This document shows positions 4,574 to 58,332 of a DNA stretch of 58,351 bases, one piece after another. The notes beneath the pieces were generated by a model. It was not told the origin of the DNA. It was given only the letters and a program-made list of their open reading frames with translations, and made no database searches. Numbering within the stretch: the first letter of the stretch is position 1; each line of letters starts with the position of its first letter. The position numbers were made by a program, and so were the translations under genes. This stretch comes from Oscillospiraceae bacterium (GTDB lineage: Bacteria > Bacillota > Clostridia > Oscillospirales > Acutalibacteraceae), in assembly GCA_029012165.1 (NCBI GenBank), contig JAQXLO010000065.1:1-58351 (forward strand), in the 5' to 3' direction.

Positions 4574-4700
4574 AGTATCTCCTCCATATTCGCCATTTTC
4601 ACGACAATTCATTTTGTATAAAGATATGTCCCGCCTCGGACAAATATGACAGAGAAAACGAATTCGAGTGCAATAGACTGTTCCGGCTCCATAAAATGCA

Positions 4701-5032
4701 CGCTCTTCACGGAAAATTGTGGGTTTTGTGCTTCGCACTGGGGAACCCCCGGCGAGGGTTCCCCATGCCAAAACAGTCCACCGGACTGTTTTGGCTCCCC
4801 TGCGAGGGGAGCTGTCTGCGCAGCAGACTGAGGGGTTCAAAACGCCGCCGCACGCAGACAGCAAAAGTCAGCGAAAAACCCTCCCGACGAGGCTGACGCC
4901 TCGCCACCCTCCCTCGCAGGGAGGGCTTTCGCTTTGTAAAACCAAACTTTCGCCGGACTTTTTCGACAGTCTGGCAAGCCTTCCCAAAGGCTTGAGAGAA
5001 ACTTTAAATCCCACAAAAATCCGTGATGAACC
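4701..5032 (+). mobile_element. MITE-like structured repeat, copy 1 (variant internal module)
   Basis: The left end CGCTCTTCACGGAAAATTGTGGG and right end AATCCCACAAAAATCCGTGATGAACC are imperfect inverted repeats. Flanking 8-mers are AAAATGCA (4693-4700) and AAAAAGCA (5033-5040), a 7/8 match. It shares the hairpin block GGGGAACCCCCGGCGAGGGTTCCCC / CCAAAACAGTCCACCGGACTGTTTTGG with the other three copies. Confidence 0.8.
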
Positions 5033-22046: not shown

Positions 22047-22276
22047 CGTTCTTCACGGAAAATTGTGGGATTTGTGTTTCGCACCGGGGAACCCCCGGCG
22101 AGGGTTCCCCACGCCAAAACAGTCCACCGGACTGTTTTGGCTCCCCTCCGGCGCTTTTGGTGGTGGTTGGATTTCGCCGACTGCGGTCGGCGACCAAAGG
22201 CGCCGCCTTTGGAATCCGCAAGCCTTCCCAAAGGCTTGACCGAAACTTTTAATCCCAAAAAAATCCGTGATGAACC
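22047..22276 (+). mobile_element. MITE-like structured repeat, copy 2 (cleanest copy)
   Basis: TIRs CGTTCTTCACGGAAAATTGTGGGATT and (reverse complement) GGTTCATCACGGATTTTTTTGGGATT. A perfect 8-bp direct repeat GATTTATT flanks it (22039-22046 and 22077-22084). The interior is a chain of six perfect hairpins. Confidence 0.85.
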
Positions 22277-33071: not shown

Positions 33072-33551
33072 ATGCGAGAAAAAATTATCGAAGCGTCCAT
33101 CGAAGCGCTGAAAAAAGAGGGCTTGAAATTTTCGGTAGATACCTTAGCCGACGGCTTGAAAATCTCGAAAAAAACCGTGTACAAATTTTTCCCGGATAAG
33201 CAGGCGCTGGCTTTGGCGCTGTATGAGAAATACTATTCCGATACCCTTGGCAAGGTCAAGGCGCTGGTTCGCAGGGATGCGGTCTGCAAGGAAGCCTTAC
33301 TGCTTCTTTATTTCGACGCAAAAATGATGACCCGCAAGGAGATTTTCAACAAGTATGCACTCCACGAAGCCGTCTATGCATTCACCGCACGGCAAAATGA
33401 TACCCTCTGGTCGGCCATTTCTGTATCTTGGGATGGGAGCGCAGAGGACAAGCAAACCCTCCGTCTCATCGTGGACGGCACTTTTGAAAAGCTCTGCACG
33501 CAGGGCGTCTCTCCGAATGACGTGATAAAAAGGTTGGTCGATTGGATATGA
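33072..33551 (+). CDS. TetR-family transcriptional regulator
   Basis: N-terminal HTH IIEASIEALKKEGLKFSVDTLADGLKISKKTVYKFFPDK. Confidence 0.85.
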   Translation: MREKIIEASIEALKKEGLKFSVDTLADGLKISKKTVYKFFPDKQALALALYEKYYSDTLGKVKALVRRDAVCKEALLLLYFDAKMMTRKEIFNKYALHEAVYAFTARQNDTLWSAISVSWDGSAEDKQTLRLIVDGTFEKLCTQGVSPNDVIKRLVDWI

Positions 33552-33641
33552 TTCTCGGTATCAACGAAGTGATCGCCGTCATCCTTGCGAAGTACGCTTT
33601 TCAATGGGCAGGCGAGATTCCGAAATAATAGAAAGAAGAAA

Positions 33642-34016
33642 CGTTCTTCACGGAAAATTGTGGGATCTGTGCTTCGCACCGGGGAACCCCCGGCGAGGGT
33701 TCCCCACGCCAAAACAGTCCACCGGACTGTTTTGGCTCCCCTCCTGCGCATTTCTGTTGTCAGGGCAATACCGCACAGATTGGGGTATGCGGATTGCGAA
33801 GTAAGATTTTTTGTCAGGTTGCACAGAAAGACCGCCGACTTGCTGACGCAAGTCAAGGGATTTTTGTGTAAACTGACGGAATAAGATTCAAGCAAGGCGT
33901 GTGCCGCAATTTGTGTGGTGTTGCCCAAGATTTCGCCGACTGCGGTCGGCGACCAAAGGCGCCGCCTTTGGAATCCGCAAGCCTTTAAAAAGGCTTGACC
34001 GAAACGTTTAATCCCA
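33642..34016 (+). mobile_element. MITE-like structured repeat, copy 3 (expanded interior, degenerate right end)
   Basis: The left TIR and first hairpin block are intact. About 180 bp of unique sequence (33745-33925) sits between the two conserved hairpin blocks. The right end stops at AATCCCATTAAAAT without the CCGTGATGAACC terminus. I see no clear TSD. Confidence 0.7.
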
Positions 34017-34023
34017 TTAAAAT

Positions 34024-34050
34024 AGGGAGCCTCTCAAAAGCAGAGGTTCC
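34024..34050. terminator. Hairpin terminator downstream of the S24-peptidase operon
   Basis: GGGAGCCTCT-caaaagc-AGAGGTTCCC with T/A-rich flanks. Confidence 0.55.
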
Positions 34051-34097
34051 CTTTCTGATTTATGAAGCAGGATACATTTTTGGGATGGGTTTTCCGT

Positions 34098-34571
34098 TTA
34101 TTTTTTTTGAATTTTACGCACCAAGGGCGCCAAAAAGCGGACATACTGGGGATAGATATGCAAGCGGAAAAGACGCACCAAGGGCAGTCCTGACTGATAA
34201 AGCTTGTAGCCGAAGGATCGACAGTCAATGACCTTGCCCTCCTTGCGGCGCACACGGACGAGCCTCGCCAAAATCCATTCCGGCTGTACGCCATATTCCA
34301 CATCCCTTTGGTTGTCGCCACGCAGGACAAAGCCGTCCTTGCGCTTTCCGATCACCCGGTGCAGCACAAATTCGCCGTCCGGCCGACGATAAAAAATCAC
34401 GTCGCCCCGCTGAATCGGTCTGTCCGGCTTGCGCAGGGTAGCCGTGTCCATTTTATTGCGCAGCAACGGCAGCATACTGAATCCGCTGGTCACAAACGAG
34501 ACCTCGCCCCCGTTTTGCAAAACAAGCTGCATCGCCTCGGAGACCTGGTACAAGTGCACCTTTTTAGGCAA
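34098..34571 (-). CDS. S24/S26-family Ser-Lys peptidase (no N-terminal membrane anchor)
   Basis: SGFSMLPLL...RGDVIFYRRPDGEFVLHRVIGKRKDGFVLRGDNQ. TTG 34571 lies 9 nt after AAGGAG and overlaps the PqqD-like stop by 8 nt. Confidence 0.8.
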   Translation of the reverse strand: MPKKVHLYQVSEAMQLVLQNGGEVSFVTSGFSMLPLLRNKMDTATLRKPDRPIQRGDVIFYRRPDGEFVLHRVIGKRKDGFVLRGDNQRDVEYGVQPEWILARLVRVRRKEGKVIDCRSFGYKLYQSGLPLVRLFRLHIYPQYVRFLAPLVRKIQKK

Positions 34572-34827
34572 GGAAACCCGCTCCTTTTAGCTTTTGCAGA
34601 AACTCGTCAACGTCCGCCTGCGCCGTCGCACGGTCGATGGCATATTCCTTCGTCATGGCATCGACCACCGCATCCGGCGTCGTCTCCTCGAGCAGATGGT
34701 TCCAAACAAACTCCCCTGTCTCGTTCAGCGTCGTCAAACCTGAAAGCTGCATGGAGACATCACCCGTTGCAAGGACGATACTGCTGTCTCCCACCTTGCA
34801 AAGCTGATAGCCGTCTTTTATCCTCAT
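34564..34827 (-). CDS. PqqD-family protein (RiPP recognition element-type peptide chaperone)
   Basis: 87 aa: ...SIVLATGDVSMQLSGLTTLNETGEFVWNHLLEETTPDAVVDAMTKEYAIDRATAQADVDEFLQKLKGAGFL. Length and pattern are those of PqqD/RRE proteins. ATGA overlap with the upstream kinase-like gene. Confidence 0.8.
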   Translation of the reverse strand: MRIKDGYQLCKVGDSSIVLATGDVSMQLSGLTTLNETGEFVWNHLLEETTPDAVVDAMTKEYAIDRATAQADVDEFLQKLKGAGFLA

Positions 34828-35567
34828 GGCGCATTTCCTTTCCGCATTTCATTATAGGAGGTTTGCACTGCGTCCATGCTGATGTTGCAGTGCAGCTGAT
34901 AGATGGGCACTTGTGTGACCAGAACATGAACCGTCTCCAGAAGTTTCGTGTACAGCTCCACACTGCGTGGGCGAACGGTCTGGTTGAGCAGCGCAAAAAT
35001 CGCTTCCCGCTGCGGGAGGCGCTCGATGGAGTTGGTTTCTGCCCGGGCAACCACGGCAATGCCCTTGAGCGGCACACGCTCATTTTTGCTGATGTCGAAC
35101 TTGCCACTGAACGGTGTGCCGTAGGCATAGCATCTGCCCTGCACGATGCGCAGCGCCGGTTTGTCGTCGTTCAGAATGTACGCCTTATCCTTGAAATATT
35201 CCAGCCAGAGTCCCGTATGGGTAGATTTTCCCGTGCCGCTGGGGGCGGTGAAAAGGTAGGCTTCGCCGTCCACGACCACCGCAGAGGCGTGCAGAAGCAT
35301 CCCTTTGAAATACAGCAGTTTTTCATAAAAGCGTGCGCCCATAAGGAGATACTCCAAACTGCCGTTGTCCAGATGCGGCGCCTGAGAGCGGTACTCGTCG
35401 ATATCCGCCTGCGTGACAGACAGAGGAAGCGCCATCTTGTCCACCTGAACCGCATACTTTTGACTGCGCTGCTGAAGCAGAGGGTACTTTGCATCGTACT
35501 CAATGCAAAGGTCGGCAATGCGATACTGCAAGGGTAAATCTCCTTTTTCTAACAATTTTTGCGCCAC
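34824..35567 (-). CDS. HPr-kinase-related P-loop kinase-like protein
   Basis: GEAYLFTAPSGTGKSTHTGLWL (P-loop), followed by ...GTPFSGKF.... Architecture is as in HprK-related kinases of RiPP clusters. The track start is GTG 35567. TTG 35531, 8 nt after AAAGGAG, is a likely alternative start. Confidence 0.7.
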   Translation of the reverse strand: MAQKLLEKGDLPLQYRIADLCIEYDAKYPLLQQRSQKYAVQVDKMALPLSVTQADIDEYRSQAPHLDNGSLEYLLMGARFYEKLLYFKGMLLHASAVVVDGEAYLFTAPSGTGKSTHTGLWLEYFKDKAYILNDDKPALRIVQGRCYAYGTPFSGKFDISKNERVPLKGIAVVARAETNSIERLPQREAIFALLNQTVRPRSVELYTKLLETVHVLVTQVPIYQLHCNISMDAVQTSYNEMRKGNAP

Positions 35568-35746
35568 GGCACAGAATCTGTGCCGCCGAGCAAAACCTGC
35601 TTTTTTGTGGATACTACCGCAAATGTCCTTCTTTGCCGCCCTATGCAGCAGGGTGGCGCAGACAGGCTCATGCGGTACTCAAACGGGCAGACAGCCGAGA
35701 CTGCCTGCCCGCATGATTATGGTGTTTTCGATCCGTTTAGGGTCGA

Positions 35747-38701
35747 TCAGTTTCTGGTAACAGTGGGGCCGTAGACAATGCCAACGCCTTCGATTTCCAC
35801 ATAGGGACGAAGGACAACAGCGTACGGGAAGTTCGCCTTGGTCAGGGAGACTGCGTAAGTGCCGTTGTTGTTGGTATTTCTGGAAGTACCCTTCTTGACC
35901 ATGCTGTTGGTGCTGTTGACAACCAGTTCGGTGTCCACATCCACCGTTGCAGGACCAAAGACGATACCGGAGCTGAGAACCTTCAGGCCGGACTTAACGC
36001 TTCTTTCAGCATAGAAGGTATCCTTCACGCCATCATCGGTCTTCCAGACGATGTTAATCGTCCAGTCGGGAGCTTCAGCGCCGTAGACTGCGGTGAATTC
36101 CGCAGAGCGGACGACCTGGTGTGCATAGGTCTTTTCCACGCTGACGATGTTGCCTTCTGCATCCTGCCAGTAGGAGAAGTTGTCGCCCGTGGCGGTGTAG
36201 GTGGCAGTCTTACCGACCTCGATGTTCGCAGTAGTTGTTTCGCCGTTGTCATTGTAAACAAGGGTGCACATCTGATCTGCGTTGAAGGAGGGGATGAGGA
36301 TCAGTGCGTTGGAGCCGGGACGATAGGCAAGAACGTGACCGGTCTTGCTGTAGCTTGCGCCGGAGATGGCGAAAGCGGAGCTGCCGCCGCCGTAGTAGTT
36401 GTACTCAGGAACGAGAGATGCCACATCAATCTCGTTGCCGACCTTACCGGGCCAATCGCCGAAGGTGAAGCCGGGGATGTCGATGGTGTCCACACGGGAC
36501 AGGGAAACCAGAGCAGCCTCATCGCCTGCGGTGGGAACATAGCTTTCTTCACCGACAACGTTACCGATGGAGGAAGCGAATGTGACGGTAGGCTCATCCA
36601 GATAACCGAAGTGGGCGCTGAGCTCACGGTCGGTCTTGGTGACAAGGGTCAGGTCAGGATCGGTGCTGATGATGTTGCCTGCGTTGTTTGCCCAGTACAG
36701 GAACTCGCAGCCCTCAGCGGGAGTAGCGCTCAGGGTGACAACACCGTTGTGGGTGTCGTTGACTTCCACGTCGCTGGAGATACCGTTATCGGTGGCAACA
36801 GTACCTTCGCCGATGACTTCTGCTTCGACCTTAACGGGAGCTTCTTCGATTTCGACAGTTGCGTCTTCAAAGACACACCAGCCCATGACATCGTTGCCGT
36901 TCACGAACTTCTCGGGAGTGATGTACTCGTCGAGGTTGTGGTAAACATAGACAGCCTTGTCAACATAGTAGGGGATCAGTTCCTTGTTGTTTTCCGCCTT
37001 GGTCAGGAGATTCTGCACGGTGGAGCTTGCCATGACACGATCATACACCTGAACTGCAGTATCTGCAAGATCCGCAACCTGCTTGAGGGTATCGACCTTG
37101 TCGGTGTAGCCCGCCATGTCGATCAGCTTGGCAACATTGCCGTCTTCCAGAACGGCAACGAGACCGTCCACAGCGTCCTTGGCATCGAAGAGGATGTCGA
37201 TCACGCCGCCCTCTTCAAAGATCTTTTCATATGCCCAGTAAGCGATGTCGCCCCACATGGAGTCATCGTTGAGAACACCAAACTGTGCGTCGAACTCGTC
37301 CTTGATCTGGCTTACGGAATCCAGAGGTGCATAGGCATCCTTGATCACTTCAGGATCTTCCGTGAACTTCGCTCTCTGGCCGTAGCCGATGTAGTACTTG
37401 CCCTTGGCGGGATCCAGTGCGTAATCCTGGTTGCCGTTGAGCATAACAGCACCGCCGAGGTTGAACAGAGCCTGCTGCAGCGCCTTGAACTCTGCACTGT
37501 CTGCGATGGCGAAGCCGATTTCACCGTTGTTTTCGGGATTGGGAAGCTCATCGACCGTCTTCCACAGGTCGCACAGCATATCCATAACCTGGTCATACTT
37601 GCTGCAAACCCATGTGTAGTCCAGCTTATCCATTGCGATTTCATATGCTCTGTTCAGATAGTATCTGGCGTTGATCGCATACTTTGCAATGTCTGTCTGC
37701 ATCTCTGCCCAAACACGATATCTGACCTGAACGCCTTCCTTTGCAGCAGCAGAGGAAATGCTGGCGGTGTAGTTGACGCCGTCCTCGGTGGTCATCTTGA
37801 CGTTCTGACCGTTGGAAAGGACTGCATACTCAGGGATATACTTGTAGGAGCAGGTGGTGCTGTATCTGTTGGGCCAGATGTTGGAGTCGTCCACAGAAGC
37901 GGTGACTTCCGCCATGGCTTCGCCTTCAACGACGGTGACGGTTGCGTCACTGTCCACGGGTCTGGCATAGGCATACACTCTGTCGCCGAGAACCGTCTTG
38001 ATCAGGTTGATTTCCTTTTCGGTGAGCTTCTTGTTGCCGTTGAACATACCGTTGAGATGGTCTGCAGCATTGACCTTCTCTGTGCCTTCGGCAATGACTT
38101 CGTTGGTACGGATGCCTCTCATGGCGCCGATGATGATGGCGTCATAAACGGTAACCTTGCCGCCCTTGGAGGCGCCGGTCACAGCGTTGTTCACGCCGTA
38201 GCGGCCATACAGGGAAGCCTTGTACAGGGTGACGTCTGCACCGTTCAGAGCCTCAATTGCGCTGCCGGTGGAAACGGAATACTTCTTCTGGGTGGGGATG
38301 CGGGTCATGCCGCCGCTGACGCTCACGCCGTTGATCGTCAGAGAACCGCCGTTCACACGGATGGCAGCAGGGCTCTTGTCCTTCACCGTCTTGAGCATCT
38401 CCGCAGAGGAAACATCTGCGAATCTGGAGACGACACGGCCGTCGGTGATGGTGACATTGGCACCGTTGATGGTGATTGCAGCCTTGCCGCGCTCGCCCTG
38501 AATGCTATGGCCGCCGAGATCGAGGGTAAAATCCTTGTCGATCACGATGGATTCCGTAACATTGGCAGTCAGCGTGTAGCTGCCGTCTGCTGCATCGATG
38601 GCAGCCTGAAGGGTGCCGGCAGCAGAAGCTGCAACTGCGCAGGTGCTGACAATCATGAGAACGGTTACTGCAACAGCGAGAATTCTTTTTGCAATTTTCA
38701 T
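35747..38701 (-). CDS. Large secreted surface protein: beta-helix-like N-domain, helical middle, multiple Listeria-Bacteroides (InlB-B) type repeats
   Basis: Signal peptide MKIAKRILAVAVTVLMIVSTCAVAASAAG. The N-terminus has ITINGANVTITDG / IRVNGGSLTINGVSVSGG PbH1-like repeats. The C-terminal half has CEFLYWANNAGNIIS...LSAHFG and FSYWQDAEGNIVS...FTAVYG repeats. 984 aa. Confidence 0.85.
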   Translation of the reverse strand: MKIAKRILAVAVTVLMIVSTCAVAASAAGTLQAAIDAADGSYTLTANVTESIVIDKDFTLDLGGHSIQGERGKAAITINGANVTITDGRVVSRFADVSSAEMLKTVKDKSPAAIRVNGGSLTINGVSVSGGMTRIPTQKKYSVSTGSAIEALNGADVTLYKASLYGRYGVNNAVTGASKGGKVTVYDAIIIGAMRGIRTNEVIAEGTEKVNAADHLNGMFNGNKKLTEKEINLIKTVLGDRVYAYARPVDSDATVTVVEGEAMAEVTASVDDSNIWPNRYSTTCSYKYIPEYAVLSNGQNVKMTTEDGVNYTASISSAAAKEGVQVRYRVWAEMQTDIAKYAINARYYLNRAYEIAMDKLDYTWVCSKYDQVMDMLCDLWKTVDELPNPENNGEIGFAIADSAEFKALQQALFNLGGAVMLNGNQDYALDPAKGKYYIGYGQRAKFTEDPEVIKDAYAPLDSVSQIKDEFDAQFGVLNDDSMWGDIAYWAYEKIFEEGGVIDILFDAKDAVDGLVAVLEDGNVAKLIDMAGYTDKVDTLKQVADLADTAVQVYDRVMASSTVQNLLTKAENNKELIPYYVDKAVYVYHNLDEYITPEKFVNGNDVMGWCVFEDATVEIEEAPVKVEAEVIGEGTVATDNGISSDVEVNDTHNGVVTLSATPAEGCEFLYWANNAGNIISTDPDLTLVTKTDRELSAHFGYLDEPTVTFASSIGNVVGEESYVPTAGDEAALVSLSRVDTIDIPGFTFGDWPGKVGNEIDVASLVPEYNYYGGGSSAFAISGASYSKTGHVLAYRPGSNALILIPSFNADQMCTLVYNDNGETTTANIEVGKTATYTATGDNFSYWQDAEGNIVSVEKTYAHQVVRSAEFTAVYGAEAPDWTINIVWKTDDGVKDTFYAERSVKSGLKVLSSGIVFGPATVDVDTELVVNSTNSMVKKGTSRNTNNNGTYAVSLTKANFPYAVVLRPYVEIEGVGIVYGPTVTRN

Positions 38702-38783: not shown

Positions 38784-39959
38784 TCAGCCGTTGGCGGCAG
38801 AAACAATGTCGCCGTAAACGATGAACTGCGCATCCGCCGCATTCTTGACGATCAGGAAGGGGCGGACATATACGCTCTGCCCGATGTCCACGTTGGACTG
38901 TGCCACAGAGAACGTGCCGCAGTTCTCGTTGGAGTTGCCGTAGACCTTGCGGATGCCGGCGGTGGCGGAATCGCCCGCCGCACTGACGATCATGGAATCC
39001 TCCGTCTGCTCCGTCTTGGAGACGAGCAAACCGTGGGAGAGCACGGTATAGTCCGTCGGCACGCTGCGCTCTGCGTAGAAGGTGATCTTGAACTCGGTCG
39101 TGTCAGGGACGATCTTGGACACCCGTGCCACGGGCGCAGGTGTGACGTCCTCGCCGTAGACGGCAGTCAGGGTGACGTTGTAGTTGATGCGGAAGCTGTA
39201 GTTGCGCTCATAGCTGATGACAGCGCCGCTGCTGTCCTTCCAGTAGGAAAATGCCTGACCCTCGCCGTTGACCGGCTCGGCTTTCAGATTTACGGTCTGG
39301 AAGTTTTGATAGGTGCCTGCGCCGGAAACGTAGGCATCGTTGGTGATCTTGACGGTGTAGCTCTCGCTGTTGACCGTGTAGATGGGGTAGACCACCACAT
39401 CCTCGGTGGTTGCGGCGATCTCCTGCTCGGTCATGGACCAGCGCTGGAAGGTAAAGCCCGGGAGCACGCCTGCGGCGGGCACATTGATGTCCTCGTCGAA
39501 GGCATACATGGGGTCGGAATCCAGCAGCTTGTTGCCGCCGTAGTTGACGTAGGTCACGAAGTGCTCCGTATCGGAAACCACGGCAAACTGCGCACGCAGA
39601 TGCATACGGGACGCCACGGTGAAGCTGACGCTGCGGTCATAGGAATAGACACGGCCGCTGTACTCGTCCAGCCAGAACATGAAGGTACGGGTCGCCGTGT
39701 CCGCCGCAGTCAGCTTGACCACTTCACCGACAGGGTTGGTACCGATATACTGGGTACGGGTGCTGCCGGAATAGTCGTCGCCCATCTCATAGAGAATCTT
39801 GCCGCCGTTGCTGGTCAGCTTGATCGGCTGTTTTCCGGTGCCGTTGTCTCCGTTGAAGGAGATCATATTTCCTGCCAAAGAGGTCAGTGCACAGGAAAAG
39901 ACCAGCGCAATGGCCAGCAATACAGAGAAAACACGCTTGCAAATGGAAGTTTTCTTCAT
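38784..39959 (-). CDS. Secreted InlB-B-repeat-containing protein
   Basis: Start at ATG 39959 (MKKTSICKRVFSVLLAIALVFSCALTSLAG). Repeats: FMFWLDEYSGRVYS...LRAQF, FTFQRWSM and FSYWKDSSGAVIS...LTAVYG. Its C-terminal domain is shared with the 984-aa protein. Confidence 0.85.
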   Translation of the reverse strand: MKKTSICKRVFSVLLAIALVFSCALTSLAGNMISFNGDNGTGKQPIKLTSNGGKILYEMGDDYSGSTRTQYIGTNPVGEVVKLTAADTATRTFMFWLDEYSGRVYSYDRSVSFTVASRMHLRAQFAVVSDTEHFVTYVNYGGNKLLDSDPMYAFDEDINVPAAGVLPGFTFQRWSMTEQEIAATTEDVVVYPIYTVNSESYTVKITNDAYVSGAGTYQNFQTVNLKAEPVNGEGQAFSYWKDSSGAVISYERNYSFRINYNVTLTAVYGEDVTPAPVARVSKIVPDTTEFKITFYAERSVPTDYTVLSHGLLVSKTEQTEDSMIVSAAGDSATAGIRKVYGNSNENCGTFSVAQSNVDIGQSVYVRPFLIVKNAADAQFIVYGDIVSAANG

Positions 39960-40061: not shown

Positions 40062-42008
40062 TCACAAACTGATCTCCCATTCCACGGCGTCTTGTGGAAT
40101 TTGCACCGACCGAACACCGGCGGGCAGATTCAGCTCCACCCGGCGTTCGCCGACAGCGCCCGAAAGGGTGATCTTTTTCCCGTTTTCCATGCGCACGCAC
40201 ACCCATCCGCCCTGCACGGGGTAGTTGTCCACCGCCACCGTTTCGCCGTACCACGCTTCGGGAATGCCTCGGAACAGGATCAGCGTCCCGTCCGTCTTTT
40301 CGGCGATCAGCGCATCCAGCAGCGTCTTGCTCGCCGTGGACTGCCCCCAGATATGCGGACAGGCACCGCCGCCGCACGCTGCGTGCGGACGATTCCAGAC
40401 CGACGTTTCCGCCGGATATCCGACCGCCTCCCACCAGGAAAAGGGTCCGCTCATGGCGTGTTCGATCATGAACCGATACGCTTCAATGCCGGCCGAGCGG
40501 TATTTCTCCCCCCGCAGCGCCGCACTGCCGTAGCCGGCGTTGTAGGCACTGCAATACCATCCGTGGGGGTAGCCGCCAAAATTGTACGGACTGTCCGACA
40601 CGGTGCGGCGCATCCTGCCCACATATTCATAGGTGCTGTCGATTTTGTCCAGCATGACGCCGTACTGCGGCGCCCCCAGCAGATAGCCGTCCCACGCCCA
40701 TCTGCCGAACAAAAACATAGACAGGGCGTTGGCGTCCCGGGGATCCCTGCGCTGTCCCTTTTCATTGGGGCGGGTCATGGAAATGGGGATGTAGTCGATG
40801 CCCTGTTCCCGCATCAGCCCCTCAAGCTGTGCGTTGCAAGCGCTGAGCAGACTGTCATACTGCGCCGACGCCCACGCCGCCTCTTCCGTTTTACGCAGCT
40901 CGTCGCAGATATATTTGTATGCCGAAAGTCCCGTCAGCGCCGACCAGTTGTCCACCGTCCAGTGTCCCAGAGAGTCGATGGCGTTGGTGGGCTTCATGAT
41001 GCCGTACTCTCCCCTGTCCCCCTCGATGGTGTGGGTATTCTCCGCAATTTCCGAAAACTTCTCCTGCACATATGCCCTGTCCCCCGTTTTTTGCAGGTAC
41101 AGCGCAAAGGGCCAGCTGTATTTCCAGCGGGCGTCGGGATAGAGAACGTGATCCAAAATATGTGCCGCATATTCCCGGAAGTGACGGAAATCCCCCATGG
41201 TCAGCAGTGCCGCCATGATGCCCAGCGTATCGTGGTCAAACACGTTGTCGTACCCGTTTTCCCCAACGTGCAGACGATCGCCGTCCTTGACGATCATGGT
41301 GTAGATGTACCCCGCCTTGTATGCGTTGACCAGTTCTTTGTCCGGCAAGGTCGGCTGTGCAATTTCGGAAAGGCGCTGCGTCCAGTAGGCCTTCATGTGC
41401 ACATAGTGGGACTGCCAGTCCCCTGCTGTCCGAAGTGTGTCCGCCGGCGGAAAGGGATATGTCCCGCCGAATCTGTCCGCAAAGATTGCAAAATCCGCCG
41501 TCACCGTTTCCCCCGCCTCCACAGAGCGGGGTACGTCCGTCAGCGGGATGAGATATTTGGAAACGTCCCGCATAGCAACGGCGTCCTGTCCCCGGTTGCA
41601 AAGGGTCATCCGCGAATAGGCGGCGACGAAGTCCCGCCCCTGCAGCGTGAGCTTGTCGGCAAAGCTTTCCAGCGTGACCTCCAGCGTCCCCGCCGCAAAA
41701 CGGCTCACCAGACACGGCAGAAAGCCCTCCCTGTTGTGCCAGTCGATCTTGCCGGTGATGTCCTTTTCCGTGAAGCCGAAATGCACCAGCACATTGCCCC
41801 TGTCCCGCAGCAGATAGCACCCGTCCGCAAAGGCGATGGGCGCATGGCGATCTCCCTCCCAGCCGAACACGGATTGGAGACCGTAATGCTTTTTGCACAG
41901 CAGTTTTTTCGTCATGGCGCCCTTTTTGGATCGTGTGTGCTTCACCGCCATAAAGCGGAAATATCGGTTCACCCCAAAGGCAAAGAGCGCATGAAGCGGA
42001 TGCGGCAT
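40062..42008 (-). CDS. Uncharacterised (alpha/alpha)6 six-hairpin glycosidase-like protein
   Basis: A long ORF with good codon bias. Trp/aromatic-rich motifs (HWTVDNWSALTGL, FGRWAWDGYLLG, GGYPHGWYCSAYNAGYG, PFSWWEAVGY) are reminiscent of GH15/GH95/GH78-type barrels. No signal peptide. The true start is probably internal (ATG 41951 or 41915). Confidence 0.5.
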   Translation of the reverse strand: MPHPLHALFAFGVNRYFRFMAVKHTRSKKGAMTKKLLCKKHYGLQSVFGWEGDRHAPIAFADGCYLLRDRGNVLVHFGFTEKDITGKIDWHNREGFLPCLVSRFAAGTLEVTLESFADKLTLQGRDFVAAYSRMTLCNRGQDAVAMRDVSKYLIPLTDVPRSVEAGETVTADFAIFADRFGGTYPFPPADTLRTAGDWQSHYVHMKAYWTQRLSEIAQPTLPDKELVNAYKAGYIYTMIVKDGDRLHVGENGYDNVFDHDTLGIMAALLTMGDFRHFREYAAHILDHVLYPDARWKYSWPFALYLQKTGDRAYVQEKFSEIAENTHTIEGDRGEYGIMKPTNAIDSLGHWTVDNWSALTGLSAYKYICDELRKTEEAAWASAQYDSLLSACNAQLEGLMREQGIDYIPISMTRPNEKGQRRDPRDANALSMFLFGRWAWDGYLLGAPQYGVMLDKIDSTYEYVGRMRRTVSDSPYNFGGYPHGWYCSAYNAGYGSAALRGEKYRSAGIEAYRFMIEHAMSGPFSWWEAVGYPAETSVWNRPHAACGGGACPHIWGQSTASKTLLDALIAEKTDGTLILFRGIPEAWYGETVAVDNYPVQGGWVCVRMENGKKITLSGAVGERRVELNLPAGVRSVQIPQDAVEWEISL

Positions 42009-42092: not shown

Positions 42093-42788
42093 TTACAGTC
42101 TTTCCAGTACCTCGGGATGGGCGTCCAAGTCGATGCGCCGATAGTCGTCCTCTGCGTCAAAGAACCAGCACCGTGCGTCCGGGCGCTCGGGAGAGTGCAG
42201 GATATACCGCTTGTCGTCCACAAAGCAGATCGCCGCATCGTTCTCGCACGCAATCGACGAGATCTTTCGGGAACGCACCACGTCATTGAACGACTGCCAC
42301 GTCTCGGAGTCGTAGTGGGGGCAGTTGCAGTACGGAATCAGATCCAGACAGTCCACAAACATAAATTCGTGTTCGGGACCGCAGTCATCGTACCCCTCAC
42401 GGAACCAGCACATGGAGCCGGAGGAGGCGCCAAAGAGCACCTTGCCCGCCTGTGCCGCTTCACGCAGATATTTGTCCACATGGTACCGCCGCCACATTTC
42501 CGCCACAAACCGCAGATTGCCGCCGGGCACATGGATCACGTCCGCTTTGCGAATCTTTTCGGCGATCAGCGCCTCGGTCACATAGTCCCGCGTCACAAAC
42601 AGCGCATCCACTTCGCATCCCCAGTTGAAAAAGCGGGAATACATGGACGTGTCAAAGTTGTCGAAGATGGTGGTGGGAATGGTCAGGAAATTCGGCTTCT
42701 CCTTATCGCACAGCGACAGAATGTGCCGCACCAGAAAATCTCCGTGCCTGCCGTCAAAGCCGCCGCCGATGGCTACAATTTTGCTCAT
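42093..42788 (-). CDS. S51-family peptidase (dipeptidase E-like, class I amidotransferase fold)
   Basis: MSKIVAIGGGF...DVIHVPGGNLRF...VLFGASSGSMCWF (nucleophile-elbow Ser). ATG 42788 lies behind AAAGGAAG. Confidence 0.7.
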   Translation of the reverse strand: MSKIVAIGGGFDGRHGDFLVRHILSLCDKEKPNFLTIPTTIFDNFDTSMYSRFFNWGCEVDALFVTRDYVTEALIAEKIRKADVIHVPGGNLRFVAEMWRRYHVDKYLREAAQAGKVLFGASSGSMCWFREGYDDCGPEHEFMFVDCLDLIPYCNCPHYDSETWQSFNDVVRSRKISSIACENDAAICFVDDKRYILHSPERPDARCWFFDAEDDYRRIDLDAHPEVLERL

Positions 42789-42868
42789 ATTTTCTTCCTT
42801 TCTCCGCCGAAACACGGATTGCTTTTGCAGTTCCATTGTATCGAATGTCCCGCCCGTTGTCAATCCTT

Positions 42869-43627
42869 TTATCCCAGCGCCACATCCAGCGTCATCATCA
42901 GGGAAAACCCCAGCATGAACATGAGCGTGCCGGTGTAGGCACGGCCGCATTCCGACATTTCGGGCACAAGTTCCTCCACCACCACATAGATCATTGCCCC
43001 CGCCGCAAAGGCAAGCAGATACGGCAGGATCGGTACGATCAGCGTGGACAGCAGTACCGTCAGCGCTCCGGCAATGGGTTCCACAATTCCGGACAGTACG
43101 CCCCGCCCAAAAGCCTTGCCCTTTCTCATGCCCCGGGACGCCAGAGGCATGGAGATGATCGCCCCCTCGGGGAGATTTTGGATGCCGATGCCCATGGAGA
43201 GCATCATCGCCGCCGAAAAAGCCGTATCGGACTGTCCCGCAAGGGCGCCCGCAAACGCCGCCCCCACCGCCATGCCCTCCGGAATGTTATGTATGACCAC
43301 AGCCAGCACCAGCATGGCGACCTTTTCGTTCTCTTTCTGTGCCTGTATGTGCGGCAAAAGCTTATCCGCCAGCATCATGGACACAATGCCCACGCAGAAT
43401 CCGCTCACCGCCGGAAAGAACGCCAGCTTGCCCATGTCCGCCGCCCGATCAATGGACGGCAGCAGCAGGCTCCACACCGATGCCGCCACCATCACACCCG
43501 CCGCAAAACCGATCAGTGCGTGCTGGAGCACGGCGTTGATTTCTTTTTTCAAAAACAGCACGCACGCCGCACCCAGCGCCGTGCCGATAAAGGGGATCAT
43601 CAGTCCCCAAAAAACTGTATCTGTCAT
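42869..43627 (-). CDS. ZIP-family divalent metal transporter (ZupT-like)
   Basis: VIHNIPEGMAVG and GIQNLPEGAIIS motifs, 8 TM-like segments. ATG 43627 (MTDTVFWG). Confidence 0.88.
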   Translation of the reverse strand: MTDTVFWGLMIPFIGTALGAACVLFLKKEINAVLQHALIGFAAGVMVAASVWSLLLPSIDRAADMGKLAFFPAVSGFCVGIVSMMLADKLLPHIQAQKENEKVAMLVLAVVIHNIPEGMAVGAAFAGALAGQSDTAFSAAMMLSMGIGIQNLPEGAIISMPLASRGMRKGKAFGRGVLSGIVEPIAGALTVLLSTLIVPILPYLLAFAAGAMIYVVVEELVPEMSECGRAYTGTLMFMLGFSLMMTLDVALG

Positions 43628-43764: not shown

Positions 43765-45537
43765 TTATCGGAGTTTTTCCATCCCGACATATTCCTGCAC
43801 GAGGACGGGAAGCTTGCGGAACAGTGCTTTGAAGAAAGCGGCGAGTTTGGCGAAGAAGCCGGTTTTGACACTGACGGTCTCGGTTTCGGATTCGGCGAGT
43901 GTCTTGCCGTCCTGCATATACTTCGCCTGCACTGTAAAGGTTTTCTTGGCTTCTTTCACGGTATAGGTGTCGCCCGTACCCATGTCCTTGCCGTCCACGA
44001 ACCAGTGCACTTCGGCGCCGTCCACAGGGCTGTTTACCACTGCGGCAAAGGTAATGGTCGTTCTGTAGTCCACTGTCCGACTGCTTTGGAAATTGCGAAC
44101 CGCAACCGTCGGCAGCATGGGAATCGGCAGGGTCTCAAAGGCAGCGCAGGCGGAACATTCCCGTCTTTTTTGACCGGCTTCGGTCTGCGTCGCTTCCTTG
44201 ACAACGACCCATGCGCCGAAGGAATGCCCCAACGCTTCCGTTTCGTCGCTCTTATAGCTGTCGCCGCAGGCGGAACAGGTGTAGGTGGTGCAGCCCTTTT
44301 CCGTGCAGGTGGGCGGTGTGACAACGGAATCATACTTGTGTCCCGCTGCCTCTGTTTCATCGGCGGTGTAACTGTCGCCGCACATGGAACAGGTATAAGT
44401 AGTATAGCCCTTTTCCGTACAGGTGGGTGGTGTGACGGCAGAGCTGTATTTGTGTCCCGGCGCATCCGTTTCGTTGTCCGTGTAGCTGTCCCCGCAGGCG
44501 GAGCAGGTATAAGTAGTATACCCCTTTTCCGTGCAGGTGGGCGGCGTCACGGTGCTGTCATAATCGTGACCCAGCGCTGGTATCTCCTGCGTTTCGCTGA
44601 GCCGTTCATCACAAACAGCACAGACAGTGTATTCCTCCCCCTTCGCCGTACAGGTCGGTTCGGTGCGGACTGTCTTTTCCGTGTGCGGGATCGTTTCGAT
44701 GTCCTCCGTGTAGCTGTCCCCGCAGCGGGAACAGGTATAGGTCGCCGCACCCGTTTCCGTGCAAGTCGCTTCTTTCGTCACGGTGCAGTCATAATCGTGA
44801 CCCAGTGCAGGTATCTCCTGCGTTTCGCTGAGCCGTTCATCGCAAACAGCACAGGCAGTGTATTCCTCTCCCTTTGCCGTACAGGTCGGCTCGGTGCGGA
44901 CTGTCTTTTCCGTGTGCGGGATTGTTTCAATGTCCTCCGTGTAGCTGTCGCCGCACACGGAACAGGTGTAGGTGGTATAGCCTTTCTCCGTACAGGTGGG
45001 CGGTGTCACGACGGAGGTATATTCATGGGTATGCGCACCGGAGCTCGTCACGGTGACGGTGCCGCTCTGTGTCTGGAAAGAAACCGGCTGCAGGTCGCAG
45101 TTGAAGCAGGAACTGCTGCTGCAAGTCAGCGAAACCGTCGTATCCCCAAGGGGTGCATCTTCCCGAACTTGGAAGGTAAAGGTCACCAAGATGCCATCCT
45201 GCGTGTGGTTCGTCGTGGACAGGGAATCCGACCACAGCACGTTGTAGGGCACTGCCGTCTTGTCGCCGCCGGGCACCATGGTGCCGGTACCCAGCAGACC
45301 ACCGTCCTGCACTGTCGTCAGCGTCAACACGTCGGGATCATAGCTGATCTGCACAAGGGCGGCAATGATGCCGGGATTGCGGACAATCTCCACCGCCACA
45401 TCCACGCTTTCCCCGGGGTGGGTCGTCACGCTGACGATGCGCAGCGTCGGTTCCTCTGCCGCCGAAGCCAGCGTACCCGTCCCGAGCGCCAGCAGGGTTG
45501 CCAATAGTATACTGCACACCTTTTTCCAAAACATCAT
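43765..45537 (-). CDS. Secreted protein: cohesin-like N-domain + 8 His/Cys repeats + Ig-like domain + amphipathic tail
   Basis: Signal peptide MMFWKKVCSILLATLLALGTGTLASAAEEP. LRIVSVTTHPGESVDVAVEIVRNPGIIAALVQISYDPDVLTL is cohesin-like. The repeats are of the form H.Y....TPPTCTEKGYTTYTCS.CGDSY. C-terminal tail: TGFFAKLAAFFKALFRKLPVLVQEY. Confidence 0.85.
   Translation of the reverse strand: MMFWKKVCSILLATLLALGTGTLASAAEEPTLRIVSVTTHPGESVDVAVEIVRNPGIIAALVQISYDPDVLTLTTVQDGGLLGTGTMVPGGDKTAVPYNVLWSDSLSTTNHTQDGILVTFTFQVREDAPLGDTTVSLTCSSSSCFNCDLQPVSFQTQSGTVTVTSSGAHTHEYTSVVTPPTCTEKGYTTYTCSVCGDSYTEDIETIPHTEKTVRTEPTCTAKGEEYTACAVCDERLSETQEIPALGHDYDCTVTKEATCTETGAATYTCSRCGDSYTEDIETIPHTEKTVRTEPTCTAKGEEYTVCAVCDERLSETQEIPALGHDYDSTVTPPTCTEKGYTTYTCSACGDSYTDNETDAPGHKYSSAVTPPTCTEKGYTTYTCSMCGDSYTADETEAAGHKYDSVVTPPTCTEKGCTTYTCSACGDSYKSDETEALGHSFGAWVVVKEATQTEAGQKRRECSACAAFETLPIPMLPTVAVRNFQSSRTVDYRTTITFAAVVNSPVDGAEVHWFVDGKDMGTGDTYTVKEAKKTFTVQAKYMQDGKTLAESETETVSVKTGFFAKLAAFFKALFRKLPVLVQEYVGMEKLR
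44559..45020. repeat. Two near-identical direct DNA repeats (231-bp period) inside the Cys-repeat gene
   Basis: The segment from 44559 (tcataatcgtgacccag...) recurs from 44790 with only scattered mismatches over about 185 bp. Both copies encode YTCS.CGDSYTEDIETIPHTEKTVRTEPTCTAKGEEYT.CAVCDERLSETQEIPALGHDYD. Confidence 0.85.
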
Positions 45538-45697
45538 GGTTCTGTCCCCTTTCCTGAACTTTTCCACCTTTAATGGTAATATAAAACCCCGAAAACGTCA
45601 AGAAAATATTTTGCAAAGTACATATTTTCTTGACGGGTCTGCATATCTATGGTAAAATCAATATTTGTAAAAGTATGACTGAAAGGATTATCCAAGC

Positions 45698-58103: not shown

Positions 58104-58332
58104 GGTTCATCACGGATTTTTGTGGGATTAAAAGTTTCGCTCAAGCCTTTTTAAAGGCTTGCGGATTCCAAAGGCGGCGCCTTTGGTCGCCGACCGCAGT
58201 CGGCGAAATCCTAACAAAAGAAAAGCGCAGGAGGGGAGCTAAAACAGTCCGGTGGACTGTTTTGGCGTGGGGAACCCTCGCCGGGGGTTCCCCGGTGCGA
58301 AGCACAAATCCCACAATTTTCTGTGAGGTGCG
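58104..58332 (-). mobile_element. MITE-like structured repeat, copy 4 (inverted orientation)
   Basis: About 90 percent identical by eye to copy 2 over its full length when reverse-complemented. It is flanked by the identical 8-mer ATTTTTTT (58096-58103 and 58333-58340). Confidence 0.85.

Follow-up and report, generated by a model that had tools for sequence, protein, structure and literature searches.

What do three coupled genes for an HprK-like P-loop protein, a PqqD-type recognition element for peptides that are made on ribosomes and modified after translation (RiPPs), and a peptidase-like protein accomplish when neither a precursor peptide nor a cyclase nor an exporter is encoded beside them? 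The question is raised by a locus on contig JAQXLO010000065.1 of an Oscillospiraceae bacterium (assembly GCA_029012165.1). The window, as used below, is the full stretch of 58,351 nucleotides (nt) that was analyzed; the trio stands for the three genes, and L-numbers (L001, etc.) designate homologous loci from other genomes. With moderate confidence, we propose that the trio is a leader-guided maturation module that comes from lasso clusters of the paeninodin type and has lost their cyclase and cysteine protease, with a substrate that, in this genome, would be encoded elsewhere or have changed.

Three coupled genes on the minus strand

An earlier reading made without database searches (the sequence-only reading) had described three open reading frames (ORFs) on the minus strand, with two overlaps. 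All are present exactly where it had placed them (Table 1), together with the motifs quoted there: LFTAPSGTGKSTHT in the first product and GFSMLP, LHRVIGK, and GDN in the third. The longest ORF of the first gene begins with a GTG at 35567 (34824..35567, 247 amino acids, aa). The start is most likely the TTG at 35531, since an AAGGAG box lies 9 nt 5′ of this codon and since about 235 aa is the length of nearly all homologs, one of them 99% identical. As read from the sequence, the stop codon of the first gene and the start codon of the PqqD gene overlap in an ATGA (34824-34827), and the PqqD and peptidase genes share 8 nt (TTGCCTAA, 34564-34571). A purine-rich box is found 8-9 nt 5′ of each downstream start, and the TTG start of the peptidase gene is backed by homologs beginning with M-x-K-x-V-H-L-Y. 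The same order occurs in many related genomes; because it is identical in dozens of independent ones, the arrangement is not due to chance.

Folds and motifs of the three proteins

The best NCBIfam match of the first protein is ScmC (TIGR04249; E 6.7e-8, 32.2 bits vs. a cut-off of 125), with the HprK-related kinases A and B ranking after it. The local copy of Pfam gave no match for this protein, and homologs up to 99% identical bear the precomputed Pfam family PF27840 (ScmC). Four segments are invariant across 20 diverse homologs: LHAS, the P-loop SGTGKSTHT, NDDKP, and GTPFSGK. The protein has the P-loop GxxGxGKS/T, the downstream acidic DD metal site, and the conserved His, here the invariant H81. 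Its AlphaFold2 model has a predicted local distance difference test (pLDDT) score of 94. In a Foldseek search of the Protein Data Bank (PDB), this model gives 54 matches at E<=1e-3, and the best 50 of the 54 are all phosphoenolpyruvate carboxykinase (PEPCK) or HPr kinase/phosphorylase (HprK/P) chains. The top matches are PEPCK and HprK/P (1knx, 1kkm, 1jb1), with E of about 3e-5 and template modeling (TM) scores of 0.3-0.5 only. A PDB sequence search with the ScmC profile gave nothing useful. The HprK-like assignment made earlier from the P-loop agrees with this model, which supports an HprK/PEPCK fold; from fold and motifs, the ScmC-like protein may be predicted to act as a kinase.

The 87-aa product, which the sequence-only reading had assigned to the PqqD family, contains a genuine PF05402 domain at residues 21-86 (E 1.3e-18, 67.5 bits, with a gathering cut-off, GA, of 23.4). 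Among NCBIfam models, it comes closest to the lasso-type PqqD chaperones (B1), with scores under the cut-offs (NF033530, 49.8 vs. 70; NF033536, 31.5 vs. 80). In L005 (10965-11240), and also in L007 and L008, the first PqqD gene is followed by a second, tandem one, ahead of the peptidase gene.

The third protein matches best, in NCBIfam, the archaeal-type signal peptidase I (TIGR02228; E 1.4e-7, 31.5 bits vs. a cut-off of 51.85). Weak matches are found also with the maturation protease of nickel superoxide dismutase (Ni-SOD) and with SipW, and all curated cut-offs are missed. In the alignment of homologs, S32, H71, and D86 are invariant and the Lys of LHRVIGK varies; Ser/His/Asp is the pattern of endoplasmic reticulum and archaeal-type signal peptidases. 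Thus, the Ser-peptidase motifs noted earlier stand, but not as a Ser/Lys dyad. The lack of an N-terminal anchor stands as well: there is no signal peptide or transmembrane segment, the maximum hydropathy over 19 residues being 0.88. Since no hydrophobic segment is present, the protein should be cytoplasmic. In the AlphaFold2 model (pLDDT 85), the C-terminus forms two long basic amphipathic helices. The best Foldseek match is human SEC11C (7p2q_A, E 8.7e-4), followed by SpsB, lambda cI, LexA, UmuD, and SipA. As modeled, the protein has the LexA/signal-peptidase fold with its catalytic Ser and His boxes. Matches to HisF in the PDB sequence search were judged spurious.

A family of precursor peptides in related loci

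The ScmC-like protein belongs to a large family, with 5422 homolog clusters in a word-indexed protein search and at least 592 matching stretches in a collection with one genome per species. The hosts are gut and rumen Clostridia, at least several hundred species-level genomes. The titled records are metagenome-assembled genomes (MAGs) of Clostridia, except for a Herbivorax isolate, one bin titled Bacteroides, and one record titled only "bacterium." Among the matches listed, the closest locus is L006, from an Acutalibacteraceae MAG, with 91% identity in the ScmC-like protein and the same gene order. Neighbors were counted in 86 loci (ORFs called with conservation weighting, clustered, and turned into profile hidden Markov models, with identities taken from family searches). 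The PqqD gene follows the ScmC-like gene in 65 of the 86 loci, and an S26-like peptidase gene is near it in 47; an ATP-binding cassette (ABC) exporter (ABC_membrane + ABC_tran) occurs in about 30, an NTP_transf_5 protein in 19, and a CpsD-like tyrosine kinase in 11. A precursor ORF is found in 16 loci, with a divergent one in L047. The locus had been called an orphan. The trio is indeed without a precursor or exporter gene beside it, but the module is common in Clostridia and forms the 3′ half of a block conserved in its clade.

In the 16 loci and in L047, the ScmC-like gene is preceded, at a distance of 70-1500 nt and on its own strand, by one or two small ORFs of 34-57 aa (34-66 aa in the family as a whole; examples in Table 1; others exist). 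With a profile built from these peptides, at least 285 protein clusters are recovered; every one is "hypothetical" or has no name, and no Pfam or NCBIfam family includes any of them. For one precursor, P0215, the assembly collection contains 739 blocks. Independent gene calls agree on the following order: a secreted protein, one or more precursors, ScmC, PqqD, a peptidase of about 150 aa, ABC, and NTP_transf_5. From 120 peptides, the leader consensus is M-K-K-x-Y-x-x-P-E-[ILFV]-x-[IV]-x-x-F-x-V-E-D-[IV]-I-T-x-S, or, in short form, MKKxYxKPELxVxxFxVEDIIT-x-S (for example, MKKTYEKPELNVEQFDVEDVITAS). The Tyr is present in 113 peptides and the Pro in all 120, with a hydrophobic residue two positions past the Pro in 115. 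At the boundary with the core, position -3 is Thr in 99 peptides (Ala in 16) and position -1 is Ser in 117 (Gly in three). Beyond it, the cores are hypervariable, with a median length of 26 aa and a mean net charge of -3.8; they contain 16.5% Gly, 12% Asp, and about 18% Asp/Glu, and Cys occurs in one of the 120 peptides.

The classical specificity of S26 peptidases is for small residues at -3 and -1, and because of this rule a leader with such an end fits the S26-like protein as its leader peptidase. At the other end, YxxPxL is the motif by which lasso leaders meet the PqqD-type B1 protein (PMC10368454). Judged by its letters, the leader resembles those of lasso peptides, with an end of the signal-peptidase type. 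The logic of kinase, recognition element, and leader peptidase put forward in the sequence-only reading thus gains strong support from conserved-leader, hypervariable-core peptides upstream of the module in relatives; that the product is a phosphopeptide may be inferred by analogy, with no phosphorylation site that can be named. We found no description in the literature of either the cassette or its leader, and the precursor family is new.

Ten candidate precursors were searched against NCBIfam and gave only the paeninodin family (E 0.19) and thiopeptide precursors (0.098). An Asp or Glu at positions 7-9 of the cores, considered as a hint of a lasso ring, is uninformative in cores that are about 18% acidic. 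In L086, a second small ORF beside P0215 (10242-10397, MFKKIIACLLMLFCCAMLAGCTNEDD...) has a signal peptide and an LAGC lipobox; it resembles a very small lipoprotein and not a second precursor.

The genes 3′ of the module vary. Several precursor loci have a LysM/Secretin_N protein there (L070 15640-17388, L078 15412-17133, and L088 16133-20123), and genes of the T2SSE/T2SSF type (type IV pilus-like) come next in L088 and L089. Other precursor loci have capsule genes (Wzz, CpsD, glycosyltransferases) in this place. In L088, a dockerin-bearing protein of 1703 aa adjoins the module.

Enzymes and precursor not found

The absence of a cyclase, a B2 protease, a radical-SAM enzyme, and an exporter, remarked on in the sequence-only reading, is borne out for the trio, and in relatives cyclase, B2, and radical-SAM genes do not recur. 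Pfam searches on the 111 neighbors of the 16 precursor loci were read for the 25 most frequent families, down to those with two members. NTP_transf_5 and ABC head the list with eight members apiece, and glycosyltransferases and capsule genes rank after them; there is no Asn-synthase, transglutaminase, radical-SAM, or YcaO family among the 25. Targeted scans, precomputed Pfam, and PGAP annotation showed no lasso cyclase or B2 protein, and no Asn-synthase or transglutaminase gene lies within 7-10 kb of the clustered precursor loci. In the window, no cyclase, B2, or exporter is encoded near the trio or in the ten largest other ORFs (outside 28-46 kb, the scan covered ORFs of about 450 aa and above). 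Between about 28 and 46 kb, all scanned genes belong to other families or to none, and no radical-SAM/SPASM maturase was seen. With no cyclase and no B2, the locus does not qualify as a lasso cluster; with no radical-SAM enzyme, it does not qualify as a SynChlorMet cassette either.

The precursor is missing from the window as well, as had been suspected. When the leader profile was run against all six reading frames of the 58 kb, nothing matched at E<10, and regular expressions, a profile hidden Markov model, and clustering of small ORFs gave no precursor in the window or in L001-L008. The sole ORF in the 215-nt spacer before the trio (35549-35671) was considered as a precursor and rejected, since it is unconserved even in L006. 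PADLOC gave no match for the six proteins of the conserved block described below.

Proposed mechanism and comparison with known systems

The HprK-like kinases BsfK, PsmK, and PadeK phosphorylate lasso precursors (PMC10368454, PMC6993621). BsfK requires the RiPP recognition element (RRE) and a leader with a conserved YxxPxL (PMC10368454); PsmK has a DD metal site, and PsmN adds a hexose onto the phosphate (PMC6993621). In the mechanism that we propose, the PqqD protein would bind a leader of the YxxPxL type and present the peptide to the ScmC-like enzyme, which, by analogy with BsfK, PsmK, and PadeK, would most likely phosphorylate a Ser or Thr of the core. The cytoplasmic signal-peptidase-like protein, with its Ser/His/Asp, would cut the leader off after Thr/Ala-x-Ser. 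In most complete relatives, the phosphate would be decorated by the NTP_transf_5 protein (PsmN-like), and export of the product would fall to the ABC protein. In the clade of the window, the precursor in cis, the exporter, and the transferase would have been lost, and the constrained trio kept behind a 648-aa enzyme and two secreted paralogs. Because the cis precursor has gone while the trio is still constrained, the substrate may here be encoded elsewhere or have changed. The folds, motifs, and synteny, the precursor family of the relatives, the absence of cyclase and B2, and purifying selection are observed; what reaction the kinase-like enzyme catalyzes, where the leader is cut, and which substrate is used in this genome are predictions.

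The paeninodin, pseudomycoidin, and Bsf lasso clusters share with the trio a discrete PqqD-type RRE and an HprK-fold P-loop enzyme with a DD motif. With the relatives of the trio, clusters of the paeninodin type have in common NTP_transf_5, the ABC exporter, precursors with MKKxYxKPEL (YxxPxL), and acidic cores. In contrast, the family of the trio has neither the Asn-synthetase-like cyclase nor the transglutaminase-like B2; a Ser/His/Asp S26-like protein is found in the place of B2, and the leader ends in T-x-S instead of T-x. The cores are without the terminal Ser, the kinase-like protein forms a separate family (ScmC, 235 aa), and, in the window, the trio is without precursor, exporter, and transferase.

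In the SynChlorMet cassette, ScmC (TIGR04249) occurs with the PqqD-like ScmD (TIGR04248), and a ScmC-like protein is thus paired with a PqqD-family protein, as in the trio. However, the trio scores far under the equivalog cut-offs (32 vs. 125 and 13.5 vs. 100 bits). The SynChlorMet cassette is defined by radical-SAM/SPASM enzymes, and none adjoins the trio or recurs in relatives.

With the Sec11 and SipW signal peptidases, the trio peptidase shares the LexA/signal-peptidase fold predicted for it and the boxes with the Ser (GxSMxP), the His (HRV), and GDN. Like SodX, the Ni-SOD maturation protease, it would be a cytoplasmic enzyme that removes an N-terminal propeptide; like SipW, it is encoded in an operon with secreted proteins. 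Unlike signal peptidases, it has no transmembrane anchor, it has a pair of basic helices at the C-terminus, and its candidate substrate is a RiPP-type leader instead of a Sec signal peptide.

A PGAP-annotated example from a cultured strain is found on plasmid pNP243 of Butyrivibrio fibrisolvens D1 (Table 1). The order is a ScmC-like hypothetical protein, a 57-aa ORF, a "PqqD family protein," and an "S24/S26 family peptidase." The ORF between the ScmC-like and PqqD genes starts with MKKAYVKPEL (MKKAYVKPELKASMNG...CYDPCWNPCYNPCQPSYGRIW) and has a Cys-rich core. A nucleotidyltransferase, ABC genes, and glycosyltransferases are nearby, and no asparagine-synthase-like gene is annotated. This locus differs from the window in that the identity is 32% over the P-loop domain, the peptidase has GES for GDN, and the precursor is present instead of absent.

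The conserved block in the clade of the window

In every member of a monophyletic clade (the window, L001, L002, and L005-L008), the trio follows three genes, for proteins of 648, 391, and 984 aa (Table 1). The 984-aa gene is syntenic in L001 and L005-L008, and homologs of the N-terminal part of its product adjoin the precursor and the ScmC gene in L014 and L018. Over about 310 residues, the 391-aa protein matches the C-terminal third of its 984-aa neighbor (BLASTP E 2e-18), and the two are paralogs. The sequence-only reading had placed two very large secreted repeat proteins here: both are secreted, but only one is large (984 vs. 391 aa), and there are no DNA tandem repeats in their genes. 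The 648-aa protein has 75% mean column identity across the clade. It has no match in Pfam (E<=10), NCBIfam, or the PDB sequences. In a library of 1.84 billion proteins, it has 500 relatives, in which its domain of about 600 aa lies mostly inside proteins of 1000-2500 aa; it appears to be an uncharacterized, catalytic-looking module.

No precursor, ABC exporter, or NTP_transf_5 gene is found nearby in this clade. Its sister group includes L014 and L018, which keep the precursor, the ABC exporter, and a 984-aa-like protein, and loci with a precursor are found in scattered parts of the tree, from which it follows that the lack of a precursor is derived. In the comparison with L006, the three genes of the trio have ratios of nonsynonymous to synonymous substitution (dN/dS) of 0.078, 0.129, and 0.112, and the genes upstream of them 0.11-0.14, with a synonymous distance (dS) of 0.3-0.5. 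These low ratios show that the genes of the block are not decaying and are under purifying selection.

Table 1. Positions of the trio, its neighbors, and related elements (window coordinates unless a locus is named)
Feature	Position	Strand	Remarks
S24/S26-fold peptidase-like protein gene	34098..34571	-	157 aa, TTG start; candidate leader peptidase
PqqD-type RiPP recognition element gene	34564..34827	-	87 aa
ScmC-family HprK/PEPCK-fold (modeled) P-loop protein gene	34824..35531	-	235 aa from TTG 35531
GC-rich hairpin, conserved	35685..35710	-	GGGCAGGCAG-TCTCGG-CTGTCTGCCC; in spacer 35532-35746, between the 984-aa gene and the trio
984-aa secreted protein	35747..38701	-	signal peptide, beta-helix-like N-terminal part, InlB B-repeat modules, Pfam Flg_new_2
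391-aa secreted protein	38784..39959	-	Flg_new_2 E 1.8e-9; syntenic across clade
648-aa protein	40062..42008	-	no signal peptide; most conserved gene of block
S51-family (PepE/cyanophycinase-like) peptidase	42093-42950	-	just upstream of block; syntenic in L006
Cohesin-domain protein	43765-45567	-	600 aa; just upstream of block
Dispersed palindrome-containing repeat	33642..34023	.	3′ of trio; halves 33642-33764 and 33929-34023
CPBP/Rce1-like membrane protease gene	L001 11544-12449; L002 11449-12324; L005 11760-12659; L007; L008	opposite to trio	3′ of peptidase gene
Precursor ORFs	L014 9665-9823; L018 9754-9909; L024 9773-9928; L070 9110-9412; L086 10001-10162; L088 9833-10123		
Butyrivibrio fibrisolvens D1 plasmid pNP243 locus (L090)	NZ_CP146964.1, 186-194 kb		PGAP-annotated, cultured strain

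The hairpin between the 984-aa gene and the trio is unique in the window, with 0 copies expected by chance. In the form GGGCAGGCAG-NNNCGG-CTGNCTGCCC, it occurs in L001 (9801-9826), L005 (9901-9926), L006 (9818-9843), L007 (9874-9899), and L008 (9687-9712). Its sequence is kept across species in which the proteins are just 30%-57% identical, and the U-tail is weak in most copies. The spacer as a whole is strongly structured (folding z = -6.2), and a search of 33400-36000 against Rfam gave no match. Instead of acting as a simple terminator, the hairpin could serve for attenuation, for processing, or for the binding of a protein.

On the 3′ side of the trio, the sequence-only reading had seen a miniature inverted-repeat transposable element (MITE). 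The dispersed repeat is real, with further copies (blastn) at 4700-4801, 22047-22264, and 58116-58326 and in L006. The copies are intergenic, about 100-220 bp long, 94%-96% identical, and contain internal inverted repeats. Its status as a MITE is unproven, however, because clear terminal inverted repeats are missing. Beside the trio, about 165 bp split the two halves of the repeat, a segment absent from the copy at 22047-22264. The repeat is found, in the window and in the examined stretch of L006, in the place where other members of the clade have a CPBP/Rce1-like gene, often followed by a NUDIX hydrolase gene. The CPBP/Rce1-like family is often tied to bacteriocin immunity or peptide processing. 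The cohesin and S51 genes upstream of the block, with the dockerin protein of L088, hint at a cellulosome-like surface context.

Alternative explanations

Several observations weigh against a leader-guided maturation module. The ScmC-like protein scores far under the curated NCBIfam cut-offs for ScmC and for HprK-related kinases, and for the fold of the peptidase Foldseek offers modest support (best E 8.7e-4, TM score about 0.47). Neither the 58-kb window nor seven 20-kb loci from its clade yielded a precursor, and over all loci a precursor is nearby in about 20% only. The related cores have no C-terminal Ser, the site used by PadeK and PsmK on substrates of the paeninodin type. Finally, the conserved synteny with secreted proteins is unexplained by this model.

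The trio could, instead, mature, modify, or control the adjacent 391-aa and 984-aa secreted paralogs, possibly with the 648-aa enzyme. SipW serves TasA/TapA and SipA serves pilins, and the closest structures of the peptidase are signal peptidases and SipA. The synteny of the block stays fixed though the identity of the ScmC-like protein within the clade drops to about 50%, and wherever a precursor-bearing locus has enough flank, the gene directly upstream encodes a large secreted protein. The upstream neighbor of the ScmC-like gene or of the precursor has a signal peptide in 31/67 loci (vs. 205/740 background genes, p = 0.002), and it reaches at least 700 aa in 11/67 loci (vs. 42/915 background genes). 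However, a peptidase without signal peptide or transmembrane segment would have the trans side of the membrane out of its reach. The secreted proteins carry ordinary Sec signal peptides without a match to the leader profile, most trio loci are without such proteins, and the 984-aa gene is set apart from the trio by a hairpin that resembles a terminator. Both secreted proteins, of 391 and 984 aa, contain at the C-terminus a YxxPxLxxxG-like motif, which was considered as a site for the RRE; this YVRP[FY] is the last hairpin of the shared domain and its Pro is unconserved, so that the motif was rejected. On balance, we regard a role directed at the secreted paralogs as unlikely.

A further possibility, to which we give little credence, concerns the chemistry of the ScmC-like protein. 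It might perform other ATP chemistry (for example, the activation of a carboxylate for cyclization or ligation) or be a noncatalytic partner of PqqD, as in SynChlorMet. Its best family match is, indeed, ScmC and not the HprK-related kinases A/B; PEPCK, which acts on a carboxylate, is as good a match to the fold as HprK/P; the Asp/Glu-rich cores (18%) are without the C-terminal Ser of lasso-kinase substrates; and, in the tree, whole clades have the ScmC-like family without PqqD. On the other hand, we know of no precedent for carboxylate activation by the HprK/PEPCK fold in peptide maturation. The P-loop, the His, and the DD motif common to HprK/P and PsmK are invariant (PMC6993621), and 19 loci also contain NTP_transf_5, whose target in pseudomycoidin is the phosphate that the kinase attaches.

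Could the trio be a detached part of a canonical lasso pathway, with cyclase, B2, precursor, and exporter elsewhere in the genome? Lasso genes are normally clustered, and the fully clustered relatives of the trio are, within 7-10 kb, without Asn-synthase-like or transglutaminase-like genes. Furthermore, the S26-like gene has the position and the size of B2, right after the RRE gene. Such a split pathway would account for the lasso B1 chaperones being the best NCBIfam matches of the PqqD protein and for the weak match (E 0.19) of one peptide N-terminus to the paeninodin family. It would fit also with the lasso YxxPxL leader and the Thr near the cleavage site of the related precursors (PMC10368454) and with HprK-like kinases and NTP transferases as known lasso tailoring enzymes (PMC6993621, PMC7533575). 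We consider it very improbable.

That the trio is a functionless remnant, left behind when the precursor, the ABC exporter, the NTP_transf_5 gene, and, in this genome, also the CPBP gene were lost, is hardly tenable in view of its dN/dS values at the dS given above, the retention of all family-invariant residues, the intact translational coupling and ribosome-binding sites, and the persistence of the arrangement across a deep clade.

Implications

The maturation module may be taken one step further, tentatively and with clear doubt. The trio would then define an undescribed RiPP-like class, common among gut and rumen Clostridia, with lasso-type leaders, cleavage by the cytoplasmic S26-like protein, and ringless, acidic, Cys-free cores that are phosphorylated and, in many species, also glycosylated through NTP_transf_5; the products would act with the large surface proteins encoded, nearly without exception, just 5′ of the module. 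In the clade of the window, the module, its own peptide lost, would have been retargeted, in trans or on the secreted paralogs with the 648-aa enzyme.

If the maturation model is right, a very common module of human and animal gut Clostridia makes a kind of modified peptide that nobody is known to have studied, and the recognition between lasso-type leader and RRE would be reused without a lasso cyclase. There would be a first role for a soluble signal-peptidase homolog as a RiPP leader peptidase, and a function for the ScmC family and for HprK-like/PqqD pairs outside lasso clusters. The clade of the window, without precursor, represents a natural experiment on a module whose peptide is gone, and a cultured carrier, B. 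fibrisolvens D1, makes the module directly testable. That the module is repeatedly encoded beside giant surface proteins, and beside capsule genes, is a hint of a role in cell-surface biology and not in antibiosis.

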